64,000 bases of DNA from Gemmatimonadota bacterium (lineage in GTDB: Bacteria; Gemmatimonadota; Gemmatimonadetes; Longimicrobiales; RSA9): NCBI GenBank assembly GCA_040905425.1, contig JBBDRO010000100.1, forward strand, positions 66,953 to 130,952, in the 5' to 3' direction. The position numbers and the translations under genes were made by a program. Position 1 is the stretch's first letter. Each line of letters opens with the position of its first letter. The notes below the pieces were generated by a model. It was not told the origin of the DNA. It ran no database searches and was given only the letters and a program-made list of their open reading frames with translations. Of this stretch, positions 38,951-55,342 are shown one piece after another.

Positions 38951-39166
38951 CTAGCGGATGATGCCCAGCGGCAGGAGAACCGCGTAGCCGAGCACCAGCA
39001 GCAGCGGCGCGCCGACCGTGGAGCCACCCGCCAGCAGCACGTAGCCGGCCACCACGGCGAGCAGCCCGGCCACGAGCAGTACGGCGTTCACGGTGGAGAA
39101 TTCCAGCGAGCCCCGTTGCTGATCGGGGCGGGTTGGCTTCGCGCGCGTGCCGGTGCGTATATTCAT
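38951..39166 (-). CDS. Small two-TM membrane protein (71 aa), last gene of the che/mgl operon
   Basis: MNIRTGTRAKPTRPDQQRGSLEFSTVNAVLLVAGLLAVVAGYVLLAGGSTVGAPLLLVLGYAVLLPLGIIR. It lies 32 nt after the upstream peptidase gene. The rest of the 348-aa track ORF is antisense artefact. Confidence 0.5.
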   Translation of the reverse strand: MNIRTGTRAKPTRPDQQRGSLEFSTVNAVLLVAGLLAVVAGYVLLAGGSTVGAPLLLVLGYAVLLPLGIIR

Positions 39167-39198
39167 GCGCCGGAAACTGGCGGCGCTACGGGCGGCGG

Positions 39199-40230
39199 TC
39201 AAGGTGGCGGCTGTCCCGAGGGTGGCGGCGGTGGCGGCGGTGGTGGCGCTGTCCCGGGGTCCTCTCCCAACCAGTAGGCGGGTCGATCGGGAAGCTCGCT
39301 GGCGCGCAGGCGCTCCAGCCGCTCGCGGTTGCGGCGCCGCCGCAGGTAGGTGAGCGCCACCACCAGCACGGCCAGGAAGGCCCACAGCACCACGCTCTGC
39401 GCCAGAAAGACCAGCCAGCCGTAGCGGCTCCGCACCCGCTCCAGCCAGAGCCGCTCGAACTGCGTGGAGGAGACAGCGTACGTGGCGCGCATGGCCTGCT
39501 CGAAGGAACCCGTGGCCCGCCAGCGCTCCAGGAACGGTCCGAAGCCGCTCCCCCCGCCCTGCTCCGCCAGGTAGCGGACGGCATCGGCGGCCAGGAGGTA
39601 GGCCACCCGGGCCTGGCTGGTCCCGCGCGGCCAGGCCAGCGTGAGCTCGTCCAGCGACGGGGCGCTGCCGGTCAGGAACGCCACCCTGAGCATCCATCCC
39701 GCCGCCGGATCCAGCTCGCCCGCGGCCCACGTGGCGTACCCCTCGGAGAACCAGCGCGGTACCGCCGCGCGGCCCACCCGACGCTGCAACCCCACGTGCG
39801 CCAGTTCGTGCTTGAGAATGCGGGCCAGCTCGTTCATGGCGGCCGTACGCGGCGCGTGCAGGGGCAGCACGATGCGGCCCTCGAAGGGCAGCGCCACCCC
39901 CGCGCCCCACTCGGGGACCTGGCCGCCGGTCAACGCGTCGAAGGCCGCCTCGTCGGCCACCAGATGGATGTCCACCGTGTCGCCGCCCGGCCACCACCCC
40001 GCGGGGAAGCCGGGCAGCGGCAGGGCGTCCACCGCGCTCGCCAGCAGACGTTCGGCCAGTTCCCGCGCGGCGGCCGGCGCATACATGCGCATGCCGGGCC
40101 CGCGCAGCACGATGGTGGCGTCCTCCTGCCGGGCACCCGGTGCCGCGCGCCCGCCGAGGGGGGCAGCGGCGAAGAGCAGGAGAACGGCCGCGGCAACGAC
40201 CCCCGTGCGGCGCGGACTACGCCTGCGCAC
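39199..40230 (-). CDS. Membrane-anchored HEXXH zinc peptidase (peptidase MA-like) with a poly-Pro C-terminus
   Basis: Signal-like N-terminus, HELAH...WFSEGYA, a TM segment (YGWLVFLAQSVVLWAFLAVLVVALTYL), and a PPPPPPPPPSGQPPP tail. The start overlaps the cheB stop by 14 nt. Confidence 0.65.
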   Translation of the reverse strand: MRRRSPRRTGVVAAAVLLLFAAAPLGGRAAPGARQEDATIVLRGPGMRMYAPAAARELAERLLASAVDALPLPGFPAGWWPGGDTVDIHLVADEAAFDALTGGQVPEWGAGVALPFEGRIVLPLHAPRTAAMNELARILKHELAHVGLQRRVGRAAVPRWFSEGYATWAAGELDPAAGWMLRVAFLTGSAPSLDELTLAWPRGTSQARVAYLLAADAVRYLAEQGGGSGFGPFLERWRATGSFEQAMRATYAVSSTQFERLWLERVRSRYGWLVFLAQSVVLWAFLAVLVVALTYLRRRRNRERLERLRASELPDRPAYWLGEDPGTAPPPPPPPPPSGQPPP

Positions 40231-40867
40231 GGCGGGCCAGGAGCCGCATCCTGGTGACCACGGCGGCGCCCAGTTCGCTCAGCGGCAGGACGAGCTGCGC
40301 GTGCTCCGCGGCGGCGCGCGGCATGCTGCCCATGGTGGCGCTGGCCTCGTCCTGCGCCACGGTCCAGCCCCCCGCCTCCCGGATGGCGCGCATGCCCTCC
40401 GCGCCATCCCTCCCCATGCCCGTCAGCACCACGCCCGCCCCCGCCGGACCGAAGTGGCTCGCCACGGCGTGGAACAACAGGTCGGCCGTGGGGCGTAGGC
40501 CGCCCACGGGGTCCCCGTCGAGCGCCGTGAAGACCACGCCGGCCGCCGTCCTGGCCAGACCCAGATGCGCACCGCCCGGCGCCAGGTAGACGGTGCCGGA
40601 GCGGACAAGTTCTCCCGGCACGGCCTGGCGTACCGGGAGCGGCGTCAGGCCGTTCAGCCGGGCCGTGAGGGAGCGTGTAAAGAAGGCCGGGATGTGCTGG
40701 ATGACGATCACGGCGGCGGGAAAATCACCGGGCAGCTCGGCGATCAGGCGGGCCAGTGCGGAGGGCCCACCGGTGGAGGCGGCCACGGCCACCGCCGCGA
40801 CCGCCGGGGCCGATGCCGCCGGATCGGCATGCGGCGGCGACCCCCGGGTGGACTCAGAGTTCGACAT
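40217..40867 (-). CDS. cheB: Chemotaxis methylesterase CheB, catalytic domain only (no receiver domain)
   Basis: AVAASTGGPSAL, IVIQHIP and LTGMGRDGAEG; 216 aa. The ORF has no room for an N-terminal REC domain. Confidence 0.9.
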   Translation of the reverse strand: MSNSESTRGSPPHADPAASAPAVAAVAVAASTGGPSALARLIAELPGDFPAAVIVIQHIPAFFTRSLTARLNGLTPLPVRQAVPGELVRSGTVYLAPGGAHLGLARTAAGVVFTALDGDPVGGLRPTADLLFHAVASHFGPAGAGVVLTGMGRDGAEGMRAIREAGGWTVAQDEASATMGSMPRAAAEHAQLVLPLSELGAAVVTRMRLLARRAQA

Positions 40868-41345
40868 CGGGCGCTCGCATGGAGCTTACCAGGAGGCGGC
40901 CGTCGGTCGTGTGCAGGAAGACCGAGCGGCCGTAGCCGCCGCCCACGTCCTTGGCCACGAGCGGGATGCGGACAGCATCGAGCGCGCGCGTGGCGGCTGC
41001 CACATTGCGCTGTCCCAGGTTGCGGCGGTGCTCCTCCGCCACCGATTCGAACATGCTGGCCCCGCCAACCAGGCGGGCGCGCAGGCGGCCCGGGGCCGCG
41101 CCAGCCGTACGCATCTGGTCGATCAGGACCTGCACCGCTGTGGCGGCAAAGCGTCCCAGGGGCGTGGGGCGCCGTCCATCGGCGGGATCGGGCAGCATGG
41201 CGTGGGCCATCCCGCCCACACGGGCCTCCGGGTCCCACAGGGTGATGGCCACGCAGGATCCCAGACCCAGCGCACAGAGCACCTCCCCGCTACGCCCCAC
41301 CTTCACCTCGCCGATGCGGACGGGGACGCGAATGGGCCGCGTCAT
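40854..41345 (-). CDS. cheD: Chemoreceptor glutamine deamidase CheD
   Basis: LCALGLGSCVAITLWDPEARVGGMAHAMLP, and a ...GGYGRSVF end; 163 aa. Confidence 0.9.
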   Translation of the reverse strand: MTRPIRVPVRIGEVKVGRSGEVLCALGLGSCVAITLWDPEARVGGMAHAMLPDPADGRRPTPLGRFAATAVQVLIDQMRTAGAAPGRLRARLVGGASMFESVAEEHRRNLGQRNVAAATRALDAVRIPLVAKDVGGGYGRSVFLHTTDGRLLVSSMRAPDVEL

Positions 41346-42259
41346 GTACGGCGGTACACGCGTTCACGCGGGGCCACCGGGCTGAACAGTCCCGTGGCGC
41401 TACCGAAGAGGGCCTCCACCTTCCCCAGCACCAGGAATCCCCCTGGCGCCAGAGCCGCGTGAAGGCGGCGGAAGAGATCCTCCTGCACCCGCCGTTCGAA
41501 GTAGATGATCACGTTCCGGCAGAGGATGAGGTGCTGCTCGCGTGGGAAGGGATCGCGTAGCAGATCCAGCGGCCGGAAACGAACCCTGGCGTGCAGTTGC
41601 TCGTCGACCGTGCGTTGATCAGGGCCGCCGAACCAGCGCCGGCGCCGTCCCGCATCCAGATCACCCATGGCATACTCGGCGTAGGTTCCGGAGGCGGCCG
41701 CGGCCAGCGCACCGCGGTCCACGTCGGTGGCCAGAATGCGGCAACGCTGCGGCTCCAGGCTGCCAGCACTCTCCTCCACGAGCATGGCCAGCGAATAGGC
41801 TTCCTCGCCCGCCGCGGTGCCCGCGCTCCACAGCCGTACCTCGCCCCGGACCACGGCCAGCTCCGGGACCACCGCATCACGCAGGACCTTCCAGACCTCC
41901 GGATTGCGGAGAAACTTGCTCACGTTGATGGTCACGGCGTTCAGGAGCCGCTCGAGTTCCTCCGGCTGGCCCTCGAGCAACCGCTGGTAGGCGGCGTAAT
42001 CGTGCACACCACAGGCACGCATGCGCACGGCCACGCGGCGCCGCATGCAGCGCTCCTTGTAGCTGGCGCACGCCAGGCCGGTGCGGTTCTCCACGTAGCC
42101 CAGGAGGGCACCCAGCTCCGCCACTTCACGCTCGGTCAGCGGACCGTGCGCCAGCGGGAGGATGGCGTTCGGAGCGGCCCGGCGGTCCGCGGGCGGACGG
42201 ACCACGCGGCCCGCCCGCGGGGGCGGCGTGGCGCCGTTGGCGCGCTCCTCAGCCGGCAT
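41342..42259 (-). CDS. cheR: Chemotaxis protein methyltransferase CheR
   Basis: Start at MPAEERANG. The CheR N-domain is followed by a SAM domain (RLWSAGTAAGEEAYSLAMLV, ILCRNVIIYF). Confidence 0.9.
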   Translation of the reverse strand: MPAEERANGATPPPRAGRVVRPPADRRAAPNAILPLAHGPLTEREVAELGALLGYVENRTGLACASYKERCMRRRVAVRMRACGVHDYAAYQRLLEGQPEELERLLNAVTINVSKFLRNPEVWKVLRDAVVPELAVVRGEVRLWSAGTAAGEEAYSLAMLVEESAGSLEPQRCRILATDVDRGALAAAASGTYAEYAMGDLDAGRRRRWFGGPDQRTVDEQLHARVRFRPLDLLRDPFPREQHLILCRNVIIYFERRVQEDLFRRLHAALAPGGFLVLGKVEALFGSATGLFSPVAPRERVYRRT

Positions 42260-43868
42260 GCTCCACGATCTCCAGATTGTTGCGCACCACGCGATTGTGC
42301 GGGTTGAGCTCCAGGGCGCGGGTCCAGTGGCGCACCGCCTCCTCCCGCTGCCGTCCCTTGTAGAGCACATTGCCCATCTTGGCGTGCAGGTCATCCCCCA
42401 GGTCGGGATCCAGCTCGGCGGCGCGCTGATAGTGCTCCAGGGCGTCCTCGTGGAGGCCGCGCCGATAGATCACGTCCCCCAGGTTCTTGTGTGCCTGCGC
42501 CAGGCCGGGCTCTTCCTCTGAAGCGCGCCGATAACAGGCCTCCGCATGATCCAGGTTGCCACGCCGCTCGTGCACCAGCCCAGCCAGGAGGTGGACAGAG
42601 GCGGCATTGGGATGCGCCTCGACCGCCTCACCGGCCAGCGCGGCGGCACGGTCCAGGTCCCCGCCAAGCGCCGCAGCGAGCCCCGCGAAATGGTAGTACT
42701 GGGGAGAGGGCACCGCCGTGCCCAGCCGCCTGCGATACTCGGCATAGGCCTCGGCCGCTTCCGCGGGCCGCAGGGCATGGGTGAGCGTGAGGCCGCGTGC
42801 CAGCGCCACGGTCGGCGTGCCCGCCCGCAGCGTCTCCGCCTCATCCAGCACCAGGAGAGCGTCATCGAAGCGCTCCAGCGCGCGTAGGGAAACGGCCAGA
42901 TTCACGAAGGCGGCGAACTGCGGGCCGTGATCCTCCAGCAGGGACTTGAGCTGCCGCACCGCGGCGCGGTGGCGGCCGTCGCGCATGGCGGACAGCGCCA
43001 GATGGAAGCGGGCGGAGAGATCGTGCGGTTCCAGTTCCAGCACCCGCCCGAACTCACGCTGCGCATCCTCCAGCATGCCTGCGCGGAAGAACGCGGTCCC
43101 CAGGTTGCGGCGCTCCGCCAACTCCGCCGCCTTGCCGCGGCCACCCTCCTTTTCCTTGCGGCGCCCCACCCGATGGCAGAATCCCGCCTGGATGAGGCCG
43201 AAGAGCGCCTGCCCCACGGTGAACTCCACCAGCCCGCTCTCGTCCACCAGATCCTGAACGCTGCGCTCCCCGTCCAGCAGCAGGACAATGCGCTGCTGCT
43301 CCGCGGTGAGTTCCACATCGGAGGTGAGCAAACGCTCACTCTCCACTTCGAAGACCAGATCCAGGGAGGGGATCTTCTTCTCGATCAGGCTCCACTCGTC
43401 CACCCGGCGGGCGGCCTCCAGCAGGAGACTCTCCGGATTGATGGACACCAGGATGTCCGCCGAGTCGGGCTGCTCCCCCACCTCGAAGTAGAAGCTGCCG
43501 CGCGACCAGGTGAAGAGATGGTAGATGGCCTCTTCGATCTGCAGCCGGACGTAGCGCTCCAGATCCGCGCTGGTGATGTGGCCCTGCTCCACGAGCAGCT
43601 CTCCCACGCGGCGGTCAGGCTGCTGTGTCTGCAGCGCCAGTACCGCCTCGAGCTGCTCCTGCGTGAGGACGTCGTCGCGCACCAGGAGATCACCCAGGCG
43701 GTCCCGTCGGTTCACGACCTGTGCATACGTGATGCGGCCGGCTTCGAAGTAGATCTGACCGAAGCGCGAGCGATCCGTAACGGAAAGGCAACCGGTCTTC
43801 TGACCGAGCGCCAGGAGCTGGCACACGTCGGCCAGACTGGCCTCCTTCAGACTCCCCTTGATGGCCAT
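42249..43868 (-). CDS. PATAN (DUF4388) domain protein with a helical insertion and C-terminal TPR repeats (paralogue 2)
   Basis: Start at MAIKGSLKEASLADVCQLLALGQKTGCLSV. It has an inserted LGDLLVRDDVLTQEQLEAVLALQ / VGELLVEQGHITSADLERY repeat, then TPRs (VLELEPHDLSARFHLA, AAELDPDLGDDLHAKMG, ALELNPHN). Confidence 0.75.
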   Translation of the reverse strand: MAIKGSLKEASLADVCQLLALGQKTGCLSVTDRSRFGQIYFEAGRITYAQVVNRRDRLGDLLVRDDVLTQEQLEAVLALQTQQPDRRVGELLVEQGHITSADLERYVRLQIEEAIYHLFTWSRGSFYFEVGEQPDSADILVSINPESLLLEAARRVDEWSLIEKKIPSLDLVFEVESERLLTSDVELTAEQQRIVLLLDGERSVQDLVDESGLVEFTVGQALFGLIQAGFCHRVGRRKEKEGGRGKAAELAERRNLGTAFFRAGMLEDAQREFGRVLELEPHDLSARFHLALSAMRDGRHRAAVRQLKSLLEDHGPQFAAFVNLAVSLRALERFDDALLVLDEAETLRAGTPTVALARGLTLTHALRPAEAAEAYAEYRRRLGTAVPSPQYYHFAGLAAALGGDLDRAAALAGEAVEAHPNAASVHLLAGLVHERRGNLDHAEACYRRASEEEPGLAQAHKNLGDVIYRRGLHEDALEHYQRAAELDPDLGDDLHAKMGNVLYKGRQREEAVRHWTRALELNPHNRVVRNNLEIVEHAG

Positions 43869-43890
43869 CAGCCGCCTTCCTTCCGGCGCC

Positions 43891-45675
43891 TCATTCGCCC
43901 TCCTCCAGCGGTACGTCCTGATGGCCGGGCCAGTCCCAGAGCGCCTTTTCACGGCTCGTGAACCAGTGGTCCAGCGCCCCCCCCCGCCCCACCAGGGCGC
44001 CAGCTTCCCGCGGCGCGGGATCGGCGATGGGACGCAGACCCGCTGGCGCGGCCACCGGCTCCGTCCCGGAGGCCTCCTCATCCACGCTGCCGGAGGCGGT
44101 GAGTTCCACCACCAGCCCGGTCTCGAGGCGCCCACGGAGCCGATCCTCCAGGCCGTCGATCAAAGCCGGCGGGCCGGCGGCGCTGAAGAGCAGACGGGCC
44201 CCCGCACGACGTAGATGGTCGAAGAGGTGGAAGAGCTCCTCCTGGGCGCCCTCGGTGTCCGCCAACTCGTCCACGTCGGGCATGACCAGTACCCCCACCC
44301 GGCGCAGCCGGGCGCGCCAGGCCTCTACACCGTCGTGACCGAGCGCGTCCACCAGTTCGGAAGCAAATTCACGGCCTGGCAGCCAGGCCACGGTGAGCCC
44401 CTTCTGCAATTCCGCGATCTCGCGTGCCACGGCGGCCAGCACACGCTCGGCCAGTTCCCGGTCCCCGTGCAGGAAGTAGGGCACGTACCGGTCTCCGGTC
44501 CCCTGGGCCACCGCCGCACCGGCGCGCACGGCAAGATGGTTGGCGGGCAACGGCAACTCGGCCAACGTGGGCCCGGGTGGCGGCCGGGGCACGGGACGGG
44601 TGCGCGCCTGCACGGCCACCAGCAGTCCTTCCGCCTCCGTCACCCGCGCCGGGTCGCGCAGCACGTCGGTGCGCTCCAGCTCCGGGGCGTCACCCTCCGC
44701 TTCACGAATGAGGCGGGCCACGGTGCGCAGCCGCTCCACGCGTGACGCGAACCCCGTCAGGAACGCCTCCACCGCGGCCTCGGCCGGCGGGCTCGCCAAC
44801 GCCTCCTCAAGCAGGCGGGTGCGGAAGCCCTCCCCCTCCCAGCGGAGGATGGCCTCGGCCAGTTTGGCCTCGCTGCCGCCCGGCGAGACCACCTGACCGA
44901 TCGTGCCGGTGATCTCCGTCAGGAAGGCGCCGAACTCGTCGGGACCGCGCCGGTCCAGGGCCAGGCCGAGGAGACGACCCGCCTCCTCCATGCTCACCTG
45001 GCGGCCCTCCAGTTCCTGGATGGCCAGGATCCGGTTGAGTGCGCCCTGCAGCTCCCGCACGTTCGCGAAGGCGCCGCGCGCCAGGGCCTCCGTCACCCCA
45101 TCGCCGAGGGCCTGCCCGCGCTCCTCCGCCTTGCGGCGCACGATGGCCGCGCGGGTCTCCATGTCAGGCGGTGCCAGATCCGCTATAAGCCCCCCGGAGA
45201 AGCGGCTGAGGAGCCGATCGTCCAGTTCGTCGATCTCCGTGGGCGGACGGTCGCTGGCCAGCACCACCTGCCCGCCGCGCGACGCCATGCCGTCCCACGC
45301 CCGCAGCAACTCCTCCTGAACGGCTCGCCGTCCCGCCAGGAACTGGATATCGTCGAGCAGGAGGAGATCCGCGGCGTGGATCCGCTCCCGGAAGGCATCG
45401 CGCTGCCCGGACCGGATGGCACTCATCACGCCCTCCACCAGATGCTCCATGGTGTCGTAGGTGATGCGCAGGTCCGGATGGATGGTGCGCGTATGCTGCC
45501 CGATGGCCATGACCAGGTGCGTCTTGCCCAGCCCCGAGGCACTGTAGAGGAAGAGCGGGTTGTAGGCGGAGCCGGGCGTGTCGGCAACGCGCCGCGCTGC
45601 CGCAGCCGCGAGACGATTGGACGTCCCGACAATGAAGCTCTCGAAGGTGAGACGAGGGTCCAGCTCCAGCGACAT
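43891..45675 (-). CDS. DnaA-domain-III (Hda-like) AAA+ ATPase, internally duplicated, lacking DnaA domains I, II and IV
   Basis: The N-half aligns by eye to DnaA domain III: LDPRLTFESFIVGTSNRLAAAAARRVAD, Walker A SASGLGKTH, Walker B LLLLDDIQF, box VII DRLLSRF, sensor 2 NVRELQGALNRI. Residues around 395-560 repeat the same order with the P-loop lost. No DnaA signature or HTH is present. Confidence 0.85.
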   Translation of the reverse strand: MSLELDPRLTFESFIVGTSNRLAAAAARRVADTPGSAYNPLFLYSASGLGKTHLVMAIGQHTRTIHPDLRITYDTMEHLVEGVMSAIRSGQRDAFRERIHAADLLLLDDIQFLAGRRAVQEELLRAWDGMASRGGQVVLASDRPPTEIDELDDRLLSRFSGGLIADLAPPDMETRAAIVRRKAEERGQALGDGVTEALARGAFANVRELQGALNRILAIQELEGRQVSMEEAGRLLGLALDRRGPDEFGAFLTEITGTIGQVVSPGGSEAKLAEAILRWEGEGFRTRLLEEALASPPAEAAVEAFLTGFASRVERLRTVARLIREAEGDAPELERTDVLRDPARVTEAEGLLVAVQARTRPVPRPPPGPTLAELPLPANHLAVRAGAAVAQGTGDRYVPYFLHGDRELAERVLAAVAREIAELQKGLTVAWLPGREFASELVDALGHDGVEAWRARLRRVGVLVMPDVDELADTEGAQEELFHLFDHLRRAGARLLFSAAGPPALIDGLEDRLRGRLETGLVVELTASGSVDEEASGTEPVAAPAGLRPIADPAPREAGALVGRGGALDHWFTSREKALWDWPGHQDVPLEEGE

Positions 45676-45682
45676 TGCTCTC

Positions 45683-46312
45683 CTAGGTAGTGGCTGCGCC
45701 CGTCGGCGGCGCTTCGATCTTCTGACGGAAGCGGCGCGACAGGCTCTGCAACGTGAGCTGGCTGACCGCCTTCAGGGTGTCGAAGACGCCGTCCCCGGTG
45801 AGCGCCGCGGCCGGGAACGCCGGTACGTCACGAAAGTTCAACGTGTCATCCAGGTCGGCCACGCTCATGATCCCCGGCAGGTCCCGCTTGTTGTACTGCA
45901 GGACCATGGGGAAGTCTTCCAGCTCCACGTTTTCCTCCAGGAGATTCTCGTGGAGATTGCGCAGACTGTCCACGTTCTCCTCCATCTTCTCCCGCTGCGA
46001 ATCGGCCACGAAGACCACGCCGTCGGCCCCGCGCAGTACCAGCTTGCGGGTGGCGTTGTAGTACACCTGACCGGGCACCGTGTACAGTTGTACGCGCGTC
46101 CGGAACCCTGAGATCGTGCCCAGGTCGAGCGGCAGGAAATCGAAGAAGAGCGTGCGGTCTGTCTCCGTGGCCAGGGAGACCATGGGTCCCTTCCGCTCGT
46201 CCGGCACGTACGCGTGCACGTACTGGAGGTTGCTCGTCTTGCCGGACCGCCCCGGCCCGTAATAGACAATCTTGCAGGTGATCTCACGGGTGGAATAATT
46301 GACCAGGGACAT
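45683..46312 (-). CDS. mglA: Ras-like small GTPase MglA
   Basis: MSLVNYSTREITCKIVYYGPGRSGKTSNLQY...TETDRTLFFDFLP...LYTVPGQVYY...QYNKRDLP. It is near-collinear with Myxococcus MglA as I recall it, including the intrinsic Arg and Gln positions. Confidence 0.93.
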   Translation of the reverse strand: MSLVNYSTREITCKIVYYGPGRSGKTSNLQYVHAYVPDERKGPMVSLATETDRTLFFDFLPLDLGTISGFRTRVQLYTVPGQVYYNATRKLVLRGADGVVFVADSQREKMEENVDSLRNLHENLLEENVELEDFPMVLQYNKRDLPGIMSVADLDDTLNFRDVPAFPAAALTGDGVFDTLKAVSQLTLQSLSRRFRQKIEAPPTGAATT

Positions 46313-46342: not shown

Positions 46343-46828
46343 TCAATCCGGGTCCGACTCGAAGACCCGCTGGATCCCCGCTTCGAGATCTCGCTCGAAA
46401 CTGGCCTGATCCGTGGATCCCAGGTCGGCGCCGAATATGGGCAATGCGGCCAGGTCGGCCGCCAGACGGTCGAAGAAGAACTGTACCAGACCGAGCGTGG
46501 AGCCGCCGTCGAAGATCGTCACCACGATCAATTCCTCTACCGGAGTCTTCACGGGTGCCAGGAAGAGCTGCCGCTCCCTGCCCGCATGGTAGAGATGGGT
46601 CCACCGCCCCGCGCCCGAAATCTCGGCGAGCATACGGGAGGAGGCGTGTGCCGCCGCGGCCAGCGATGCCACGTTCACCACTTCGTAGCTGCTGGCAAAC
46701 CCGTGCTGCGCCAGCACCTGCCCCGAGTGGTTCACCAGCAGCGCCAGGCGGACCCGCGCCTCGCGTACGAAGCCATGCATGGGCTCGCGCACCGCACCCA
46801 TGATGGCGGGCAGTTCGTCACTTCTCAT
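46343..46828 (-). CDS. mglB: Roadblock/LC7 protein MglB (MglA GAP family) with an acidic tail
   Basis: ALLVNHSGQVLAQHG...VVTIFDGGSTLGLVQFFFDRLAADL parallels MglB VVIFDNRTSLGLVRLRIKKASDEL. The gene order mglB-mglA matches Myxococcus. Confidence 0.85.
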   Translation of the reverse strand: MRSDELPAIMGAVREPMHGFVREARVRLALLVNHSGQVLAQHGFASSYEVVNVASLAAAAHASSRMLAEISGAGRWTHLYHAGRERQLFLAPVKTPVEELIVVTIFDGGSTLGLVQFFFDRLAADLAALPIFGADLGSTDQASFERDLEAGIQRVFESDPD

Positions 46829-48155: not shown

Positions 48156-48180
48156 TCCTCGTTGCCGCCATGCAGGAAGC

Positions 48181-49305
48181 TCATCGGGCCCCGCTCTCGA
48201 CCACCCGCGTCAGCACGCGCAGGGCGGCCAACCCCTCATCCACGACCTTCCGCTCATCACCATCGGGCATCAGGCGCAGGTAGGTGTCCCATGCGCGCGC
48301 GCCGCGCTCCAGGTCCCCGGTGCGCACGGCCGAGAAGCCCAGGCGGAAGTGCCCTTCGGTGGAGAGCGGATCCAGCCCCACGGCCCGTGCGTAAGCCTCC
48401 GTTGCCGCGCGCATGCGCCGCTGCGCCTCCAGGGCCCGACCCGCCAGCAGGGCAATCTCCGCGTGCTCGGGGTATGCGGTCTCGAGTTCCGCGGCCAGTT
48501 TCTGCGCCTCCTCCACACGGCCGTCGGCCAGGTGTTGCTCGGCCCGCGCCATGGCCTCCCGGAGCTCACCTTCCGGTACGTGGCTGCGCTGCTCCTGCAC
48601 CTGCAGCACACCCGTGCTCACCAGTCCGTAGATCGTCTTGGCCACGTCGAACGCGCTGCGTCCCAGGTCCGCCGCGATCTGCCGGATATCCCGGTGCGCG
48701 TCGATTTCCGCGAGCACCTCCCACTCCTCCGTGCGCAGGTCGAGCGGCGCCGCCTCGCGCTCGGCGGCCGGGGCCAGCACCGGCACCGCCTCGGGACCGG
48801 GCACCTTGGATTCCAGCCGCGTCCATTCATCGATCCGCCGGGCACCCTCCATGAGCAGCGACTCCACCCGCACCTGGGCCAGCAGGCGGCCCTGACCGAT
48901 GCCGGCACGCTCCTCGAAGCGGAAGTACCCCTCGTCCCAGCCCATCAGTTCGTAGACGGTCTCCTCCATCTGGAAGCGGAGTTGCCGCTCCAGTTCTTCC
49001 TCCGTGATGCTCCCCATCTCCAGGAGGATCTCGGCCAGTCGGCGCGTGGGGTCGGTGCGCTGCAGTTCGAGCGCGCGATCCAACTCCCGCTGCGTGAGTC
49101 GACCGGCCCGGATGAGCAGCTGCCCCAGCCGCCGCGGCGAGCGCCGCCGTACCGCGAACACGATGGCGCCCCGACTGAAGTGGACGATGGCCTCGTCGTT
49201 CAAACGATCCGAGCGAACCGTCAGCACGCCGGTCTTGTGCGCCAGTTCGAGGAGCTGGAGCACGTCCTGGATGCTGAGTTCCTCGAGGGGCCCCTCGATG
49301 GCCAC
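48181..49305 (-). CDS. PATAN (DUF4388) domain protein with a helical insertion and C-terminal TPR repeats (paralogue 1)
   Basis: GTG start at VAIEGPLEELSIQDVLQLLELAHKTGVLTV. The insertion is LGQLLIRAGRLTQRELDRALELQ / LAEILLEMGSITEEELERQ, followed by TPRs. The upstream 96 aa of the track ORF overlap the TPR gene. Confidence 0.75.
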   Translation of the reverse strand: MAIEGPLEELSIQDVLQLLELAHKTGVLTVRSDRLNDEAIVHFSRGAIVFAVRRRSPRRLGQLLIRAGRLTQRELDRALELQRTDPTRRLAEILLEMGSITEEELERQLRFQMEETVYELMGWDEGYFRFEERAGIGQGRLLAQVRVESLLMEGARRIDEWTRLESKVPGPEAVPVLAPAAEREAAPLDLRTEEWEVLAEIDAHRDIRQIAADLGRSAFDVAKTIYGLVSTGVLQVQEQRSHVPEGELREAMARAEQHLADGRVEEAQKLAAELETAYPEHAEIALLAGRALEAQRRMRAATEAYARAVGLDPLSTEGHFRLGFSAVRTGDLERGARAWDTYLRLMPDGDERKVVDEGLAALRVLTRVVESGAR

Positions 49306-49318
49306 GCGCCCTCCCCGC

Positions 49319-52012
49319 CTACGTGGCCGCGACCGGCGCCGCGCCCGGCGCCGCGCTCTGGAGCCGCTCCAGCGCAGCGCTGGCGTCCGCGTTGCCGGGG
49401 TCGAAGCCGAGGGCGCGCCGATAGGCCACGCGCGCCTTGCCGTGCATGCCGGCATCCTCCAGCACCGCCCCCAGGCGAACCAGACCCTGGAGGTGGTAGG
49501 GATCCACCGTGAGGAGATCCACCAAGGCGGCGATGGCCTCGCGGTGGTGCCCGCGCCCGCGCTCGACCTCCGCCAGCCCGAGCGCGGCCTCACCGTAGCT
49601 GGGCAGGACCGCCAGCGCCACGCGGTACTCCGCCGCCGCCGCCGCCGCGTCCCCCCGCCGCGTCAGCACCCGTGCCAGAGCCGTGCGCGCCGCCGGCGCG
49701 TCCCCGCCACGCTCCAGAGCGTCACGCAACGCCCGCTCGGCGCGGGCCGTTTCGCCGGCCTCCAGGGCGGCGCGACCGAGCTGCGTGAGCAGGCCGGGAT
49801 TGGCCGGTCCGGTGTCCACGGCCTCCTCCAGGACCAGCATGGCCCGGCCGTGGTCGCCCACCTGGGTCAGTCCCTCCGCCAGCGTGCGCAGCGCCACCAC
49901 GTCACCCGGGAACAGCTCGGTGAGTCGCTCGGCCGCCTCCACCGCTTCCCGCGGCCTGTCGAGCTGGAGCAGCGAGCGGGCGGCGCCGAGCAACGCCCTG
50001 CCGAGGGCGGCCTCGCCCTCGTCGTCCTCGTCGCTCGCCGTACCACCTCGCGCCACCTCGGCCAGGGCGGCCTCGAAACGCTCCACCGCCTCACCCGCCG
50101 CGCCGCGGCGCAGGAAAGCCTCACCCTGCAGAAGGAGGCCCTGCACCCGGGGGCCGCCCTCCTGGATCATGTGCAGGGCCTCACGCTGCACCGCCTCCAG
50201 GTCTCCCCGGTCGAGCGCGGCCTGCGCCGCGGCCAGCCGGCTCCGGCCGCCCGCGGGGGAAGCGGCCTGGCCCGAACCCTCCCGGGCAAAGACCGAATCC
50301 AGCTCGCCCGCATCAGGCACGAAGGCCTCGATGGGCTGCCCGGGGCGGACCTCCTCCGCCGCGTCCAGCTCGGGCGCCAGCACGCTCGTCTCCTCGTACT
50401 GCAGGTCGATGAGCAGCCGGTGGCGCGCGGGGGGGATGAAGGGGCTCTTCTCCAGGGCGTGCCGGGTCTCCCGCAGCGCACCCTCGTAGTCCCCCAGTGC
50501 GGACAGGGCGAACGCCAGGTTGTAGCGTGCCTCGGCCAGGTCGGGGTCGAGCTCTACCGCGCGTACGAGAGCATCGCGCGCTCCGGAGGCATCGCCACCC
50601 TCCATGAGCGCGGCGCCCAGCCCGGCCCAGGCGGGGGCGGCGCCGTCATCGGCCTGCAGGGCCACGCGAAAGGTCTCGACCGCCTCGCCATGGCGGCCGG
50701 CGCGTTGCAGCAGGAGCGCCAGGTTGCGGGCCACGTCGGCCGTGGCCCGTCCGCCCTCGAGTGCTCGCCGCAGCAGTTGCTCGGCCGGCTGCGGCCGCCC
50801 CTGGTGCAGCTCCGCGACGGCCAGGTTGTTCAGGACCAGGACGTAACTACCGTCCAGTTCGAGCCCGCGCCGGTAGGCGGCCGCGGCACCGTCCAGATCC
50901 CCCTGCTGGTGCCGCGCCACGCCAAGCTCGTTCCACAGCTTGGGAGAATCAGCCTGCTGCCGCGTGAGCGCCTCGTAGAGACTGACGGCTTCCGCGTCCC
51001 CCCGCAGCAGCAGCATCTCCGCCTGGGCCTGCTGCACCAGTTGAGCGTCCTCCCCCCTTTCCGTGGCCAGGCGGAACTCCCGCAGCGCCTCGTCGAAAAG
51101 CGCCTTCTGCCGGAAGGCAATGCCCAGATTGTAGTGGGCCAGCGCCGCGTTCTCGGCCACGGCGGGTCCCTCGCCACGCTCGCCCACCAGCTCCTGATAC
51201 CGGGCGTTGCTGTGGCTGTCCAGGGACAGATTGGTCTCGGCGCGGGACAGTGACGGGTTGAGCTCGGACGCACGGGCCGCAGCGCTGCCCGCCTGTTCCT
51301 CCATGCCCAGGTCACCGTAAACGAAGGCCAGGAGGTGATGCGCCTCCGCCAGCGACGGCTGGAGCTGGACCGCCATCTCCAGCGGTCCCCGCGCCTCGGC
51401 GCTTCGTCCCTGCTGGTACTTCACCTCCCCCATGAGGAGGTGTGCGCGGGCGTTCGAAGCGTCCAGCGCCGCCGCGTTGCCCAGCGCCACCAGCGCCTCG
51501 TCCGGACTGCCCCGCCGCAGCTCGGCGCGCGCCAGCATGAGGTAGACGGCGGCGTCGCGCGGACGACCCGTCTGGACGGCACGCCACTCACGCACCGCCG
51601 CCTCGGCGTCCCCCGAATGGTAGTAGGCGCGCGCGAGCCGCTCCCGGGCCACGAGGTCATCGGCGTCGCGAGCCAGCGCGGCGCGGGCATCGGCCACCAG
51701 CCGCTCGAAGTAGCCGGTGCCGAAGAAGACGATGCGCAGATTGCGCTCCGCCACCTGCATGCGGGGATCCAGTTCGAGGGCGCGCTCGAACTGTTCCGCG
51801 GCATCCCCGAAGAGTCCCTTGTGATAGTAGACCACGCCCAGGTTGTTGTGGGCGTTCGGGTCATCCTGCTTGATACGGCGGGCCAGGCCGCGGAGCAACT
51901 CGGCGTCCCGCTCCGAACGCGGCTGTGCGCCCTGGGGCCGGCTGCGCGGACCGTCGCCTCGATCCCGCCAGGGAAGCGTGGGCTGCTGCGGCTCGGGCCG
52001 GGGCGTACTCAC
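49319..52012 (-). CDS. Large TPR-repeat protein (897 aa)
   Basis: About 20 TPR-like units throughout (NNLGVVYYHKGLFGDAAEQFERALELDP, YNLGIAFRQKALFDEALREF, WNELGVARHQQGDLDGAAAAYRRGLELD). The GTG start overlaps the cheC stop (GTGA). Confidence 0.8.
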   Translation of the reverse strand: MSTPRPEPQQPTLPWRDRGDGPRSRPQGAQPRSERDAELLRGLARRIKQDDPNAHNNLGVVYYHKGLFGDAAEQFERALELDPRMQVAERNLRIVFFGTGYFERLVADARAALARDADDLVARERLARAYYHSGDAEAAVREWRAVQTGRPRDAAVYLMLARAELRRGSPDEALVALGNAAALDASNARAHLLMGEVKYQQGRSAEARGPLEMAVQLQPSLAEAHHLLAFVYGDLGMEEQAGSAAARASELNPSLSRAETNLSLDSHSNARYQELVGERGEGPAVAENAALAHYNLGIAFRQKALFDEALREFRLATERGEDAQLVQQAQAEMLLLRGDAEAVSLYEALTRQQADSPKLWNELGVARHQQGDLDGAAAAYRRGLELDGSYVLVLNNLAVAELHQGRPQPAEQLLRRALEGGRATADVARNLALLLQRAGRHGEAVETFRVALQADDGAAPAWAGLGAALMEGGDASGARDALVRAVELDPDLAEARYNLAFALSALGDYEGALRETRHALEKSPFIPPARHRLLIDLQYEETSVLAPELDAAEEVRPGQPIEAFVPDAGELDSVFAREGSGQAASPAGGRSRLAAAQAALDRGDLEAVQREALHMIQEGGPRVQGLLLQGEAFLRRGAAGEAVERFEAALAEVARGGTASDEDDEGEAALGRALLGAARSLLQLDRPREAVEAAERLTELFPGDVVALRTLAEGLTQVGDHGRAMLVLEEAVDTGPANPGLLTQLGRAALEAGETARAERALRDALERGGDAPAARTALARVLTRRGDAAAAAAEYRVALAVLPSYGEAALGLAEVERGRGHHREAIAALVDLLTVDPYHLQGLVRLGAVLEDAGMHGKARVAYRRALGFDPGNADASAALERLQSAAPGAAPVAAT

Positions 52013-52626
52013 ACGAGCCTCAGCGCCCGGAGCATGGCCTCCAGCGACGCGTCATCCGGAATGAGCAGGAAGTGGGCGCCCATCTCCGTTTTACCGTCCA
52101 GCATGAGGTCCGTATTCATGACGAAGACAAAGTCCTGGTCCGCACCGAAATTCACATAGCTGGTGGACAGCACCGCGCCCACCATGTCCATGGCAAAGGA
52201 GGGCACGGACATGATGAGCAGCATGCCCATGAACTCGGAGAGCGCGTTCAGGTAGGCGCCCACGATGATGTTGCCCACCTCTTCCAGGATGGACTGCTCG
52301 GCCGGTCCGAGATCACGTGGGAACTCCAGGCCCTTGCGGCCTCCCATGATCTCCACCAGTACGGCGGCGGTGCCAGCGGGGAAAAGCTGGAGGGTTCGTC
52401 CGGTGACGTCCCCCAGGACCTTCATCACCACGGCGGAGACGGGCTCCTGGGGGTCGCCCATGGCCGAGGAAACATCCTCGAGTGCCACTACCTTCACCTC
52501 GGGCACTGACACGGTGATGGCCCGCGTGGTCATGTCCGACAACGCCGTGGCCGCGTGCCCCGCGCCGATATTGGCGATCTCGCGGAGCGCGGAGTACTGG
52601 ATCTCGGTGAGGCCGCGCACGTCCAT
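52009..52626 (-). CDS. cheC: CheC-family CheY-P phosphatase
   Basis: Two CheC repeats: SALREIANIGAGHAATALS and ILEEVGNIIVGAYLNALS (the D/S-X3-E-X2-N-X22-P type context); 205 aa. Confidence 0.85.
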   Translation of the reverse strand: MDVRGLTEIQYSALREIANIGAGHAATALSDMTTRAITVSVPEVKVVALEDVSSAMGDPQEPVSAVVMKVLGDVTGRTLQLFPAGTAAVLVEIMGGRKGLEFPRDLGPAEQSILEEVGNIIVGAYLNALSEFMGMLLIMSVPSFAMDMVGAVLSTSYVNFGADQDFVFVMNTDLMLDGKTEMGAHFLLIPDDASLEAMLRALRLV

Positions 52627-52630
52627 TCGA

Positions 52631-54442
52631 TCAGCTCACACTCAGGGGGTCCAGCACCAGGGCGGGCCTGCCATCCGCCAGCAGCGTGGCGCCGGAGAAG
52701 AGCGGCAGCGCCCCCACGCCCGGATGGAAGGCCTTCACGAGGATCTGCTCGCGGCGTACGATCTCGTCCACGCCCAACGCAAAGCGACGTTCGCCCGACT
52801 CGGCCACCACCGCCGCCCGCTCGCCCCCCTCCGGATCCACCCCCAGGACGGCGCGCATGCGGATGAGCCGGACCGGCTCGTCACGCAGTACGAGCCATTC
52901 CCCCGTGCCGTCCACGCGCACCGAAGTGAGGGCAAAATCCACCGCCTCCGATACGTGCGTGAGCGGCACGGCGTAGATCTCCTGGCCCACCCGCACCTGC
53001 AGGGCGGGCGCCACGGCCAGCGTGAGCGGCAGCCGCATCACGAAGTCGGTGCCCTGCCCCGTCCGGGTCCGCATGTCGATAGCGCCGCCGAGCGCGCGCA
53101 CACGGTTCACCACCGCGTCCAGCCCCACCCCACGGCCTGAGACCTCCGTCACCGCGGCGGCCGTGGAGAAGCCGGGGTGGCTGAGGATCCGAAAGAGCTC
53201 GTCGTCTTCCAGCACGCCGTCGAAATCGGCGGGCAGGATGCCACGCTCCTGTGCGCGTTCCACCACCGTCTCCTGATGCACGCCGCCGCCATCGTCCTGC
53301 AGGGTGATCCGCACGCTCGTGCGCTCGCGCTCGGCGGCCAGGCGGATCTGCCCGCGGGGAACCTTGCCAGCGGCACGGCGCGCCTCGTTGCCCTCCAGGC
53401 CGTGGTCTACGGCGTTGCGCAGGAGATGGACGATGGGATCCACGATCTCGTCGAGGATGGCACGGTCGAGTTCGATGTCCTGCCCCTCCATGACCAGTTC
53501 CACGTCCTTGCCGAGCGAGCGGGCCGCGTCCCGCACCACGCGGGGGAAGCGCTGGAAAACGTCGGCCACCGGGACCATGCGCATCGAGAGCACTGCGTGC
53601 TGCAGCTCGGACGCCACGGTACTGATGCGGGAAGCGACGTCCCCCATCCCGTTCACGGCGGCTACGTCCAGCTCTCCGGCATACTCCGCCAGCCGGCCCT
53701 GCAGCACGGCCAGTTCCGCCACGCGCTCGGCCACCTCGTCGAGGCGCCGCTGATCCACGCGCACCTGGGTAGCGGTGGCCCGAGCCGGACCGGACCGCCC
53801 GGCCGCCTGCGAGTCCCCCCGCTCGACCGTGGCGCTGGCCACCTCCCCCGCCGCGCGCAGCGCCACCGTGACGGCCTCCGCGTCGGCATCCTCCTCGAGC
53901 AGAACCAGAAAACGTCCGTCGAAGGCCTCGTCGAACTCCGCGGGTAGCGTACCTACGACTCCTCCCACCGCGCGCGCCGCGACCACCGCGAGCAGCGCGC
54001 GCGCGGCTTTGATGGGCGCGTCCTCTTCCAGGCGCACGCGCACGGCGGGCACGCCGGCCGGGCGGGCCGGTCCGGCACGGTCCCGCCCCGCGGTCCCCGC
54101 GGGTGCGGCCGCGGCGGCCACGTCGGGTGACGGATCCAGCGCGGCGGCCTGGAGCCGGTCGGCCGCGGCCAGCAAGGCGTCCACGAGTTCCGGGTCCACC
54201 TCCAGCGTGCCAGCACGCACCGCGTCCAAGCGGTCCTCGAGCGCGTGTGCCTGCTCGGTCACCAGGGTGTAGCCCATGCTCGCGGCCATCCCCTTCAGGG
54301 TGTGGGCGGCACGGAACGCCGCGGCCACCGCCTGGCGCGCCTCCTCCCCGCCCGCTTCCAGGGCCAGGATGCTCTGGGTCAGCCGCTGCAGATGCTCTTC
54401 GGCCTCGGCTGCGTAGAGGGCGCGGAAGCGGTCGACATCCAT
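52631..54442 (-). CDS. cheA: Chemotaxis histidine kinase CheA
   Basis: Start at MDVDRFRALYAAEAEEHL. Hpt domain AAHTLKGMAASMG, then a dimerisation/HATPase region (HLLRNAVDHGLE, DDGGG, GRGVGLDAV) and a C-terminal CheW-like domain. Confidence 0.93.
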   Translation of the reverse strand: MDVDRFRALYAAEAEEHLQRLTQSILALEAGGEEARQAVAAAFRAAHTLKGMAASMGYTLVTEQAHALEDRLDAVRAGTLEVDPELVDALLAAADRLQAAALDPSPDVAAAAAPAGTAGRDRAGPARPAGVPAVRVRLEEDAPIKAARALLAVVAARAVGGVVGTLPAEFDEAFDGRFLVLLEEDADAEAVTVALRAAGEVASATVERGDSQAAGRSGPARATATQVRVDQRRLDEVAERVAELAVLQGRLAEYAGELDVAAVNGMGDVASRISTVASELQHAVLSMRMVPVADVFQRFPRVVRDAARSLGKDVELVMEGQDIELDRAILDEIVDPIVHLLRNAVDHGLEGNEARRAAGKVPRGQIRLAAERERTSVRITLQDDGGGVHQETVVERAQERGILPADFDGVLEDDELFRILSHPGFSTAAAVTEVSGRGVGLDAVVNRVRALGGAIDMRTRTGQGTDFVMRLPLTLAVAPALQVRVGQEIYAVPLTHVSEAVDFALTSVRVDGTGEWLVLRDEPVRLIRMRAVLGVDPEGGERAAVVAESGERRFALGVDEIVRREQILVKAFHPGVGALPLFSGATLLADGRPALVLDPLSVS

Positions 54443-54452
54443 GGAGGTCGGT

Positions 54453-54815
54453 TCAGCCCAGCACGCGCTGTACGGCTTCGAGCACGCGGGAAGGCTGGAA
54501 CGGTTTGACCACGAAGTCGCGCGCCCCCGCCTGGATAGCTTCGATGACCAGCGCCTGCTGTCCCATGGCGCTGCACATGAGGATACGGGCTTTGGGGAAC
54601 TCCTTGACGATCGCGCGCACGGCATCGATACCGCCCATGTCCGGCATCACGATGTCCATGGTGACCAGATCCGGTTTCAACTCGCGGTATTGTTCCACCG
54701 CCTCGGAGCCGGTCTGCGCTTCACCGACCACCTCGAAGCCCGCCTGCTTCAGGATCTCTCCCAGCATGGTGCGCATGAAGAGTGCGTCATCGCAGATCAG
54801 AACGGTTCGTGCCAT
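54453..54815 (-). CDS. cheY: Chemotaxis response regulator CheY (stand-alone receiver)
   Basis: MARTVLICDDALFMR...DLVTMDIVMPDMGG...FVVKPF; 120 aa. Confidence 0.93.
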   Translation of the reverse strand: MARTVLICDDALFMRTMLGEILKQAGFEVVGEAQTGSEAVEQYRELKPDLVTMDIVMPDMGGIDAVRAIVKEFPKARILMCSAMGQQALVIEAIQAGARDFVVKPFQPSRVLEAVQRVLG

Positions 54816-54849
54816 GGTTCCTCGATGGGATGGTTCGTGCGGCGGCGCC

Positions 54850-55342
54850 TCATGCGGCCAGCAGCCGTTCGATGAGCGCATCGGGGTTCAGCAGCAGCGC
54901 GCGGTGCCCGGCCAGTTCCGCCACGCCCAGGACGTCCCCGGGTTCGAGCCCCATGCCGCGGAGTTCGTCCTCGTCGAGCGCCGCCCAGTCGGCGGCGCCC
55001 GGCGCCCCCCGGAGCCATCCGGAGCACTTCCTCCACGGCCAGAGCCAGCGGGCGCTCGCCGTCGTCCACGAAGACGAGCCGGTGCCCCGGCCGCGCGGCG
55101 GCCGGCCGTAGGCGCAGCACCACGCCCAGGTCACAGACGGTGACTACGAGGCCGCGCAGCCCTACCAGCCCGCACACTTCCGGACCGCAGCCGGGCAGCC
55201 GCGTGACCGGCCGCGGCGTGGTGATCTCGCGCACCCGGTCGAGCGGCAAGCCAAGCCGGTGGCCGTCACACGTGAGCAGCACCCAGCGCGGTAGCGGGGC
55301 CGTGGTCGATCCCCCGTCGGACGTGACCGCCGTGCTCTCCAT
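54850..55342 (-). CDS. cheW: CheW coupling protein, apparently frameshifted at a G6 run (C6 on the plus strand, 55005-55010)
   Basis: The N-part is in the frame of track ORF 54797..55342 (WVLLTCDGHRLGLPLDRVREI...PLALAVEEVLRMAPGG). The C-part is in the frame of ORF 54850..55134 (APGAADWAALDEDELRGMGLEPGDVLGVAELAGHRALLLNPDALIERLLAA). Removing one G restores a CheW of about 164 aa. Confidence 0.75.

Follow-up and report, generated by a model that had tools for sequence, protein, structure and literature searches.

We analysed a 64,000-nucleotide (nt) stretch of DNA from a Gemmatimonadota bacterium (contig JBBDRO010000100.1 of assembly GCA_040905425.1, positions 66,953 to 130,952 of the forward strand; the whole stretch is called the window below), and found that a cluster of 17 genes in it is a conserved signalling unit, apparently undescribed; all of its components belong to known families. 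The cluster joins chemosensory (che) genes with genes for an MglA-type small GTPase and Roadblock proteins, PATAN and TPR proteins, an ATPase with two DnaA-domain-III-type AAA+ domains (DnaA2x), a membrane metallopeptidase and a small membrane protein. We read it as one lineage-specific signalling apparatus, a non-flagellar chemosensory polarity device that probably acts on type IV pili, and we consider this reading about as probable as all others together. The 17 consecutive, co-directional open reading frames (ORFs) run on the minus strand from 55342 to 38951, about 16 kb. The window has about 72% G+C and lies on contig C100 of genome G000 (4.12 Mb, 96.7% complete, 115 contigs), and a search of sequencing runs found its DNA in public sediment and soil DNA runs only.

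The same gene order occurs in more than 30 independent loci of Longimicrobiales-like and Gemmatimonadales genomes, at protein identities of about 35-60%. Comparison of the 17 window proteins with 32 related loci by tblastn shows strict collinearity and three forms of the cluster, named here full, Gemmatimonas and minimal. The full form is the arrangement of the window, and it is found in two genomes of the same family (G266 and G027), in a 5.4-Mb metagenome contig and in many metagenome-assembled genomes (MAGs) of Gemmatimonadaceae and Gemmatimonadales; the split of the che genes into two blocks around the middle genes, pointed out in an earlier note on this DNA, recurs in every full-form locus. 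The Gemmatimonas form has mglA but none of the three Roadblock genes and no cheR, and it includes an extra cheW and an extra TPR gene. It occurs in G067 (L032) and in a MAG named Gemmatimonas sp., with further loci of this type at L052, L054 and L056. Its MglA sits on a long branch in the tree, and clusters of this type look like a coordinated simplification. The minimal form (L033, L036, L048-L050 and L060) consists of rluD, sometimes one Roadblock gene, and the genes for DnaA2x, the PATAN protein PATAN2, the peptidase and the small membrane protein, without che genes and without the operon mglA, and no CheA was found in complete genomes of this type. Because DnaA2x, PATAN2, the peptidase and the small protein persist in genomes that lack both the che genes and the operon mglA, they are therefore the invariant core of the system, and the Che and Mgl parts are add-on inputs. 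The earlier note had seen a hard-wired device leading from Che to the GTPase. That the genes form one conserved unit stands, and a Che-GTPase link is plausible, but the centre of the unit is DnaA2x, PATAN2 and the peptidase rather than a line from Che to MglA. The note had also proposed a survey of gene neighbourhoods, in which che, mglA and DnaA2x indeed co-occur repeatedly, and the arrangement is not unique to this genome.

DnaA2x relatives number in the thousands, and all named ones at 50% identity or more are Gemmatimonadota, many of them Longimicrobiales. A scan of 185,579 species genomes with a nine-sequence DnaA2x alignment gave at least 80 loci, of which the best matches were listed; two thirds of the 80 loci so listed are ordinary DnaA genes of other phyla, and among the matches listed the DnaA2x family is limited to Gemmatimonadota-type genomes and one low-GC lineage labelled Cloacimonetes. 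A protein atlas search gives the same restriction to Gemmatimonadota. We also tallied DnaA2x in a 400-genome sample of the phylum, counting one unpublished genome (G157) on which none of our conclusions depends. Nearly every genome of two large families in the window's class has DnaA2x, its presence is mixed within the window's order, and none was found in two other families or in the remaining classes of the sample. The nearest named relative of the low-GC lineage bears the label Candidatus Cloacimonetes; the lineage itself combines che, TPR, PATAN and DnaA2x genes and has no mglA. In its locus L037, a 272-aa AAA_22/STAND-like ATPase and a 344-aa CheW-domain protein are encoded between cheA and cheC, and an Omp28/FlgD_ig protein follows DnaA2x instead of PATAN2.

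The window cluster is tightly packed. If start codons are placed according to domain boundaries and upstream purine-rich sites, its largest intergenic gap is 32 nt, and eight junctions are start/stop overlaps. From the head of the cluster, cheW and cheY overlap by 19 nt, followed by gaps of 10 nt (cheY/cheA) and 4 nt (cheA/cheC), an overlap of 4 nt (cheC/TPR), gaps of 13 nt (TPR/PATAN1) and 25 nt (PATAN1/TPR-Roadblock), overlaps of 4 nt each (TPR-Roadblock/Roadblock and Roadblock/mglB), and gaps of 30 nt (mglB/mglA), 7 nt (mglA/DnaA2x) and 22 nt (DnaA2x/PATAN2). Overlaps of 11 nt (PATAN2/cheR), 4 nt (cheR/cheD), 14 nt (cheD/cheB) and 14 nt (cheB/peptidase) come next, and a gap of 32 nt separates the peptidase gene from the small ORF. 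A candidate sigma-70-like promoter (TTGACC-18-TATCTT, 55375..55404, minus strand), a consensus match only, sits at the head of the cluster in the 199-nt gap between rluD and cheW, the sole sizeable intergenic gap. Terminator-like hairpins within the cluster are not above chance (5, versus 3.5 +/- 2.0 in shuffled sequence). We treat the genes as one unit because of this tight packing, the eight overlaps, the promoter-like site at the head only and the lack of a terminator excess, and most likely a promoter upstream of cheW drives the whole cluster as one transcript. These results agree with the earlier note, which had listed 17 minus-strand genes with no gap above 34 nt and seven overlap junctions; every gene lies where it had been placed, each of the seven overlaps is correct, and the cheW/cheY overlap is additional. 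A Pfam profile search of all ORFs also reproduces every domain identity that the note had assigned.

In the mechanism that we propose, DnaA2x, the PATAN2-TPR protein, the bitopic HEXXH peptidase and the small two-helix membrane protein would form a membrane-associated core, with DnaA2x tethered to PATAN2 by a C-terminal tail lying in the TPR groove. The Che input would pass from an orphan methyl-accepting chemotaxis protein (MCP) through CheA/CheW to CheY, with adaptation by CheR, CheB and CheD and termination of the signal by CheC. A GTPase input would come from a dedicated MglA paralogue with its own regulators (the MglB-like, Roadblock and TPR-Roadblock proteins), and a cyclic di-GMP (c-di-GMP) input would be read by tandem MshEN-type motifs in both PATAN domains. 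The large TPR proteins would serve as scaffolds or effectors, and the apparatus would act on the type IV pilus machine, on its polarity or its activity, and not on the flagellar motor. A more specific version, which we put forward tentatively as a possibility, makes the DnaA-derived ATPase the signalling hub: tethered by its tail to a c-di-GMP-sensing PATAN-TPR protein at the membrane, it would join Che signalling, a private MglA cycle and c-di-GMP through nucleotide-dependent assembly.

DnaA2x (43891..45675, minus strand; 594 aa) matches Pfam PF00308 (Bac_DnaA) twice. The first AAA+ domain has the whole set of motifs: Walker A, Walker B, the box VII arginine and sensor II. Identity between the two domains is 27%, and in the window lineage the second no longer has a Walker A motif, while most DnaA2x orthologues retain GPSGxGKT and LLLDD there; the duplicated DnaA domain III described in the earlier note is thus present as two stretches, the second of them without Walker A here. 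An AlphaFold model of DnaA2x (pLDDT 84.6) consists of two AAA+ modules with a helical insert between them and a disordered tail. The N-terminal module superposes on domain III of Bacillus subtilis DnaA (8bv3) with a TM-score of 0.95 and a root-mean-square deviation of 1.4 Å at 42% identity; among solved structures, domain III of the B. subtilis and T. maritima DnaAs comes closest. The C-terminal tail carries a conserved motif, D.WF..REK..W.WP, in which residues E576, W582 and P583 are conserved, minimal forms included.

The DnaA2x and PATAN2 genes are adjacent in every locus compared, about 0-7 nt apart and with a short overlap in L036. We modelled full-length PATAN2 with DnaA2x residues 291-594, each with a 22-row alignment. 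The complex model gives an ipSAE of 0.80 in three runs, and the highest value among three controls is 0.00; at least 74% of contacts are shared between the runs, and the partner pLDDT is 74 or higher. The ipSAE mark is reached by 58 of 80 solved complexes and by 2 of 110 mismatched pairs, rates that are only roughly valid here since our own alignments were used. In the modelled interface, tail residues 547-554 and 566-591 of DnaA2x lie in the concave face of the PATAN2 TPR superhelix (residues 284-535), and the model supports binding of the tail in this groove. Relatives of DnaA2x also occur in larger proteins: P0157, P0160 and P0261 are giant proteins of 1348-1990 aa with a DnaA2x-like domain, and a minimal-form locus (L060:10001-12688) encodes an 896-aa DnaA2x, a fused form of the family.

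The two PATAN proteins differ in architecture. PATAN1 (48181..49305, minus strand) has a PATAN (DUF4388) domain followed by a short TPR region, and PATAN2 (42249..43868, minus strand) has a PATAN domain, a small alpha/beta domain and a long TPR superhelix (residues 244-538). The DUF4388 matches have E values of 1e-31 and 2e-39, and TPR follows in place of a Response_reg domain; neither protein is a PatA-type response regulator, as both PATAN domains come without a receiver domain. Both proteins exceed the cut-off of 38 bits of NCBIfam NF053729, an MshE-related c-di-GMP motif model (43.8 bits for PATAN1 and 49.3 for PATAN2). The MshEN motif is defined as two tandem 24-residue RLGxx(L/I/V)(L/I/V)xxG...Q motifs about 6 residues apart (PMC5013675). 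Tandem 24-residue motifs of this type, in the form RLGxxLLxxG...Q, are found at residues 59-82 and 89-112 of PATAN1 and 57-80 and 87-110 of PATAN2, in an alpha-helical insertion of each PATAN domain; in MshE and PilB, by contrast, the motif is at the N-terminus of a secretion ATPase. The motifs are conserved in orthologues, except for the Gemmatimonas-type PATAN2 with its degenerate second motif, and residues R57, G59, L62 and L73 of PATAN2 are invariant in 22 orthologues. Judged from these motifs, both PATAN proteins would bind c-di-GMP. The motif pairs, recognised by profile and pattern, are an addition to the earlier reading, which missed them, and a literature search found no earlier paper linking PATAN to MshEN motifs.

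The GTPase encoded by the cluster is a true MglA. Its gene (45683..46312, minus strand) encodes a Group 1 type protein with a P-loop, a DRT arginine finger and TVPGQ; Pfam assigns it to the Arf/Ras-like GTPases, and it matches Myxococcus xanthus MglA with an E value of 3e-76. The operon MglA and every orthologue examined share TETDRTLFFDF, the arginine-finger segment that marks Group 1; the G3 motif is YTVPGQ instead of DxxGQ, also as in Group 1; and a Robl_LC7 gene adjoins mglA as the coupled mglB of that group. An alignment shows that the catalytic residues are kept in every operon copy. A canonical mglB-mglA pair is located on another contig of the genome (C65, L017:7579-8670), beside recR and a CDP-alcohol phosphatidyltransferase gene, and its MglA scores higher against Myxococcus MglA than the operon copy does (300.9 versus 258.7 bits). 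All five relatives checked have the canonical MglA, with a second copy wherever the cluster includes mglA, and the tree separates the canonical and operon groups with 100/100 support. Because the canonical pair lies elsewhere and the tree splits the two groups so clearly, we judge the operon MglA to be a dedicated paralogue and not the cell's polarity switch. The MglA/MglB polarity module proposed in the earlier note therefore holds as a true MglA with Roadblock partners, but as a second, paralogous set. In the canonical MglA of G067, about 33 residues are inserted ahead of the final strand-helix unit; split matches in the canonical mglA of G039 and G069 (L121-L123, together with G067) suggest the same insertion, which is absent from the copies of the window genome and of G259.

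Three Roadblock genes and a large TPR gene lie upstream of mglA. The mglB-like gene (46343..46828, minus strand) matches Pfam Robl_LC7 and is a paralogue of the canonical MglB on C65; its product scores 32.7 bits against the NCBIfam MglB model, below the cut-off of 200, and by this profile score is a divergent MglB paralogue. The stand-alone Roadblock/LC7 protein (46825..47175, minus strand; 116 aa) scores 25.1 bits against a Robl_LC7 cut-off of 23. The TPR-Roadblock fusion (47172..48155, minus strand) has Pfam TPR matches and a C-terminal Roadblock domain, whose Robl_LC7 score falls just under the Pfam cut-off in the window copy; the C-terminal regions of its orthologues match Robl_LC7 in all 15 of 15, and a profile of these orthologues finds solved Roadblock chains and Thermus MglB chains. 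The 897-aa protein (49319..52012, minus strand) consists entirely of TPR by Pfam, and its position is conserved in relatives. It is not an SgmX orthologue, with 22.6 bits against a cut-off of 1800.

The che genes, all on the minus strand and identified by Pfam, supply the parts of a Che pathway: a CheA with Hpt, dimerisation, kinase and CheW-like domains together with CheW (frameshifted in the assembly) and CheY, and for adaptation CheR, CheB and CheD, with the receptor elsewhere in the genome. CheA (52631..54442; 603 aa) has Hpt, P2, dimerisation, HATPase and CheW-like domains and is the sole CheA of the genome. CheY (54453..54815; 120 aa) is a single receiver domain and the most conserved product of the cluster, with 78-90% identity across the class. 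A CheC-type CheY-P phosphatase (52009..52626) completes the first block, and the second contains the methyltransferase cheR (41342..42259), cheD (40854..41345) and cheB (40217..40867), the start of which overlaps cheD. The only MCP of the genome is an orphan HAMP plus MCPsignal protein on contig C52 (L018:7839-14755). About 3 kb from it, a protein with EAL and degenerate GGDEF domains is encoded, which could bear on the c-di-GMP motifs of the operon.

Two of the che genes are unusual. In cheW (54797..55342, ORF as in the assembly), the Pfam CheW match covers only positions 2-90 of 138, and the reading frame breaks at a poly-G run (55004-55010). Tblastn with CheW of relatives recovers the protein in two frames, one with residues 1-111 and a second with the CheW C-terminus, at 54969-54859 (shifted region 54859-55013). 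Logan contigs of two independent runs both break at 54986-55008, beside the poly-G run. The frameshift could be a real slip or an assembly error, and the 19-nt cheW/cheY overlap is probably an artefact of it. CheB consists of the methylesterase domain only (216 aa), without a receiver domain, whereas all relatives examined, including G266 and G027 of the same family, have a receiver-CheB fusion (358-371 aa where the gene call gives a length). With E. coli as the model, a CheB lacking its receiver would be constitutively active.

Type IV pilus polarity or activity is the most likely target of the apparatus. Pili are favoured because PATAN binds PilB and PilC in cyanobacteria and because MglA-GTP and TPR effectors act on pili in Myxococcus. 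In Synechocystis, a PATAN domain as the output of Che-like systems binds PilB1 and PilC (bioRxiv 10.1101/2021.06.11.447907). PilB, PilT and PilC are present in the window genome, outside the window; the earlier note had seen no pilus or flagellar genes in the window, which is correct, but pilus genes are encoded elsewhere in the genome, which has no flagellar genes. We also surveyed CheA, FliG and PilT in a class sample of 151 genomes, each at least 95% complete. PilT was found in 145 of the 151, including 38 of 38 in family f4. Families that bear the cluster have 3-5 PilT-family genes per genome, compared with mostly one where the cluster is absent (families f7 and f9, genera g9 and g10); this contrast between related, and so not independent, genomes is no more than a hint.

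Several observations weigh against this reading of the cluster. PilT is nearly universal and also present in cluster-free genomes, so that co-occurrence cannot discriminate, and the pilus link itself is drawn by analogy. The single transcript is deduced from the gene arrangement, and the sites at which CheY-P and MglA-GTP would act are likewise deduced. The frameshifted cheW and receiver-less CheB may mean that the Che branch is impaired in this genome, or that the assembly is wrong. CheC, CheD and a CheA with P2 point more to flagellar classes, where they are more typical, than to the type IV pilus (Tfp) class, and the combination of a single Hpt, P2, no C-terminal receiver and CheC/CheD is unlike ChpA-type Tfp systems. 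In addition, G266 and G027 are flagellated and their only CheA is that of the cluster, and the Che part may steer flagella in these two genomes, in addition to or instead of pili.

The main alternative to pili as the output is an envelope protease. The peptidase gene (39199..40230, minus strand) encodes a Peptidase_MA_2 metallopeptidase with HELAH, an HEXXH motif, at residue 141; the protein is predicted to have an N-terminal signal/anchor, an extracytoplasmic HELAH, a C-terminal transmembrane helix (270-295) and a Pro-rich cytoplasmic tail. The 71-aa product of the last gene (38951..39166, minus strand) is a two-helix membrane protein with the conserved motif GY.LL..GS...AP.LLVLGY, and it follows the peptidase in relatives, minimal form included. 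DnaA2x and PATAN2 could thus control or position the peptidase and its small partner, so that the output would be proteolysis of a periplasmic or surface substrate, such as an adhesin, a pilin-associated protein or a matrix component, with Che, MglA and c-di-GMP as inputs and pili not the direct target. Both membrane proteins belong to the invariant core and are kept in minimal forms, and the cytoplasmic tail of the peptidase is one that TPR or PATAN could hold. By analogy only, a part of a Geobacter paper cites unpublished work tying an mcp-less che cluster to extracellular matrix expression (PMC2577667). Contact of the peptidase with the cytoplasmic proteins is presumed, however; Peptidase_MA_2 is a broad family with no defined substrate; and L037 has che, TPR, PATAN and DnaA2x genes without an adjacent peptidase. 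We regard an envelope-directed device as rather improbable.

A flagellar chemotaxis operon, in which the Mgl, PATAN and DnaA2x proteins, like FlhF/FlhG or ParC/ParP, would set the position or number of polar flagella or of the receptor array, is less probable still. The conservation of CheY across the class is what a conserved motor target would lead one to expect, CheC and CheD are present, and the flagellated G266 and G027 have FliG and the operon's CheA as their single CheA. On the other hand, the window genome has no FliG and no homologues of the FliG/FliF cluster or the rest of the flagellar cluster of its same-family flagellated relative. In the class sample, CheA was found in 68 of 151 genomes and FliG in 17; in family f4, the counts are 35 of 38 for CheA and 4 of 38 for FliG. 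Because CheA is common and FliG rare, the system lives mostly in non-flagellated cells. Moreover, another, more distant CheA is often encoded in flagellated genomes; among the extra CheAs of G067, one is near fliG. The complete genome G249 has FliG, carries DnaA2x and has no detected CheA; it would be a flagellated cell without chemotaxis.

That DnaA2x acts on replication, co-oligomerising with DnaA or inactivating it like Hda and so coupling sensing and polarity to initiation, is an explanation to which we give little credence. Over domain III, DnaA2x shares 43% identity with the DnaA that the genome encodes on contig C19; its N-terminal domain keeps the full set of ATPase motifs, and it exceeds the TIGR00362 DnaA cut-off. 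That score is the sum of two domain-III stretches, however, and the Pfam search finds neither DnaA domain I (PF11638) nor domain IV (PF08299) in DnaA2x, both of which true DnaAs have. DnaA2x is not an Hda either: it scores 114.1 bits against a TIGR03420 cut-off of 194.8, and it has 594 aa and two AAA+ domains compared with a single domain of about 230 aa. Its constant partner is the PATAN-TPR protein, where its tail is predicted to dock. The cluster also adjoins divIVA, the genes upstream of it being exbD, exbD, tonB, yggS, divIVA, ileS, lspA and rluD. The yggS-divIVA-ileS-lspA-rluD block resembles a housekeeping order of Firmicutes, and relatives also have part of it ahead of the cluster (ileS and rluD, with divIVA or lspA). 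We therefore reject the proximity of divIVA as a sign of a division role; the polarity and division neighbourhood noted earlier comes down to a divIVA gene within a generic block, with no specific evidence for division. Finally, the idea that the genes are mere neighbours, several independent packed units without a shared function, is scarcely credible. In its favour, the Che and Mgl blocks can be lost independently; against it, the order is identical across families at about 40% protein identity, eight junctions overlap, there is no terminator excess, and each full-form locus has che genes on both sides of the middle block.

The proposed chemosensory polarity device shares parts with several known systems. 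With the Myxococcus Frz and MglA/MglB/RomR systems it has in common a Che-type pathway, a Group 1 MglA, Roadblock regulators, TPR proteins as likely GTPase partners and a probable pilus or polarity output. According to the parts of a 2014 small-GTPase survey that treat Myxococcus, Frz and Mgl are encoded at separate loci and linked by the response regulators FrzX, FrzZ and RomR (PMC4316618). Here, Che and Mgl are in one operon, the MglA in it is an additional paralogue, the cluster contains no gene like those for RomR, FrzZ or SgmX, and the centre is a DnaA-derived ATPase with no Myxococcus counterpart. The cyanobacterial Tax, Pix and Pil systems likewise encode a Che-like pathway together with PATAN proteins, but these are of the PatA type (PATAN with a receiver), while the PATAN-TPR proteins of the cluster lack a receiver and thus direct phosphorylation control, and MglA, Roadblock proteins and an AAA+ ATPase are present in addition. 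In the actinobacterial conservon (CvnA-D), as outlined in the same sections of the survey (PMC4316618), one operon also wires a phosphorelay sensor to Roadblock and MglA-family proteins. The kinase of the conservon is a membrane histidine kinase, its MglA belongs to Group 2 and has no arginine finger, and a DUF742 protein is also encoded, while Che proteins, PATAN, TPR and AAA+ are missing from it; the cluster is not a conservon, as no ORF has a CvnA or CvnC (DUF742) domain and its MglA is of Group 1. DnaA2x shares the domain III fold and motifs with the DnaA/Hda family, but it is a tandem duplication without domains I, II and IV or the Hda signature, and it has a helical insert and a conserved tail predicted to dock on TPR.

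Neighbourhoods that combine PATAN with mglB and mglA have been described by Makarova et al. (2006) and Wuichet and Sogaard-Andersen (2014), as far as the sections of the latter on gene context go (PMC4316618). These sections also list Gemmatimonadetes among the carriers of Group 1 MglA, note that PATAN genes are neighbours on occasion and that a few MglAs are coupled to two MglBs, and do not mention che genes near mglA, a DnaA-like ATPase or a peptidase (PMC4316618). The mcp-less alpha and beta che clusters of Geobacter are not a prior description of the system, since the relevant part of that paper gives them no GTPase, TPR or DnaA-like gene (PMC2577667). In the full-text literature, whose coverage leaves out most subscription-journal papers, we found no published description of an operon with che, mglA, DnaA-like and PATAN genes, in keeping with the earlier statement that the device matches no described system. 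Downstream of the cluster, 122 nt past the small membrane gene, two further minus-strand ORFs of 141 and 445 aa lie at 37069-38828; they have no Pfam match and are not conserved beside the cluster in relatives.

The cluster offers a natural wiring diagram from a phosphorelay to a small GTPase, with Che proteins, MglA/MglB-type regulators and TPR effectors in one operon, whereas in Myxococcus the same components must be connected by genetics across loci. DnaA2x is a rare case of an AAA+ protein of the initiator clade that is apparently active outside replication, and the c-di-GMP motifs would explain how PATAN proteins without a receiver domain sense a signal. A simplified version of the cluster is apparently present in cultured Gemmatimonas, which opens these hypotheses to bench testing. 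Gemmatimonadota are among the most abundant soil and sediment phyla, and we know of no study on how they sense, move or polarise. The cluster is the only Che system in most Gemmatimonadota genomes, mostly in cells without flagella, and it therefore probably controls their main behavioural circuit. If DnaA2x is indeed the hub, the cluster would represent a new class of chemosensory output, distinct from flagellar, PilG/PilH-type, transcriptional or c-di-GMP (alternative cellular function, ACF) outputs. It would then also be the ancestral system for controlling behaviour in an entire phylum that has been little studied.

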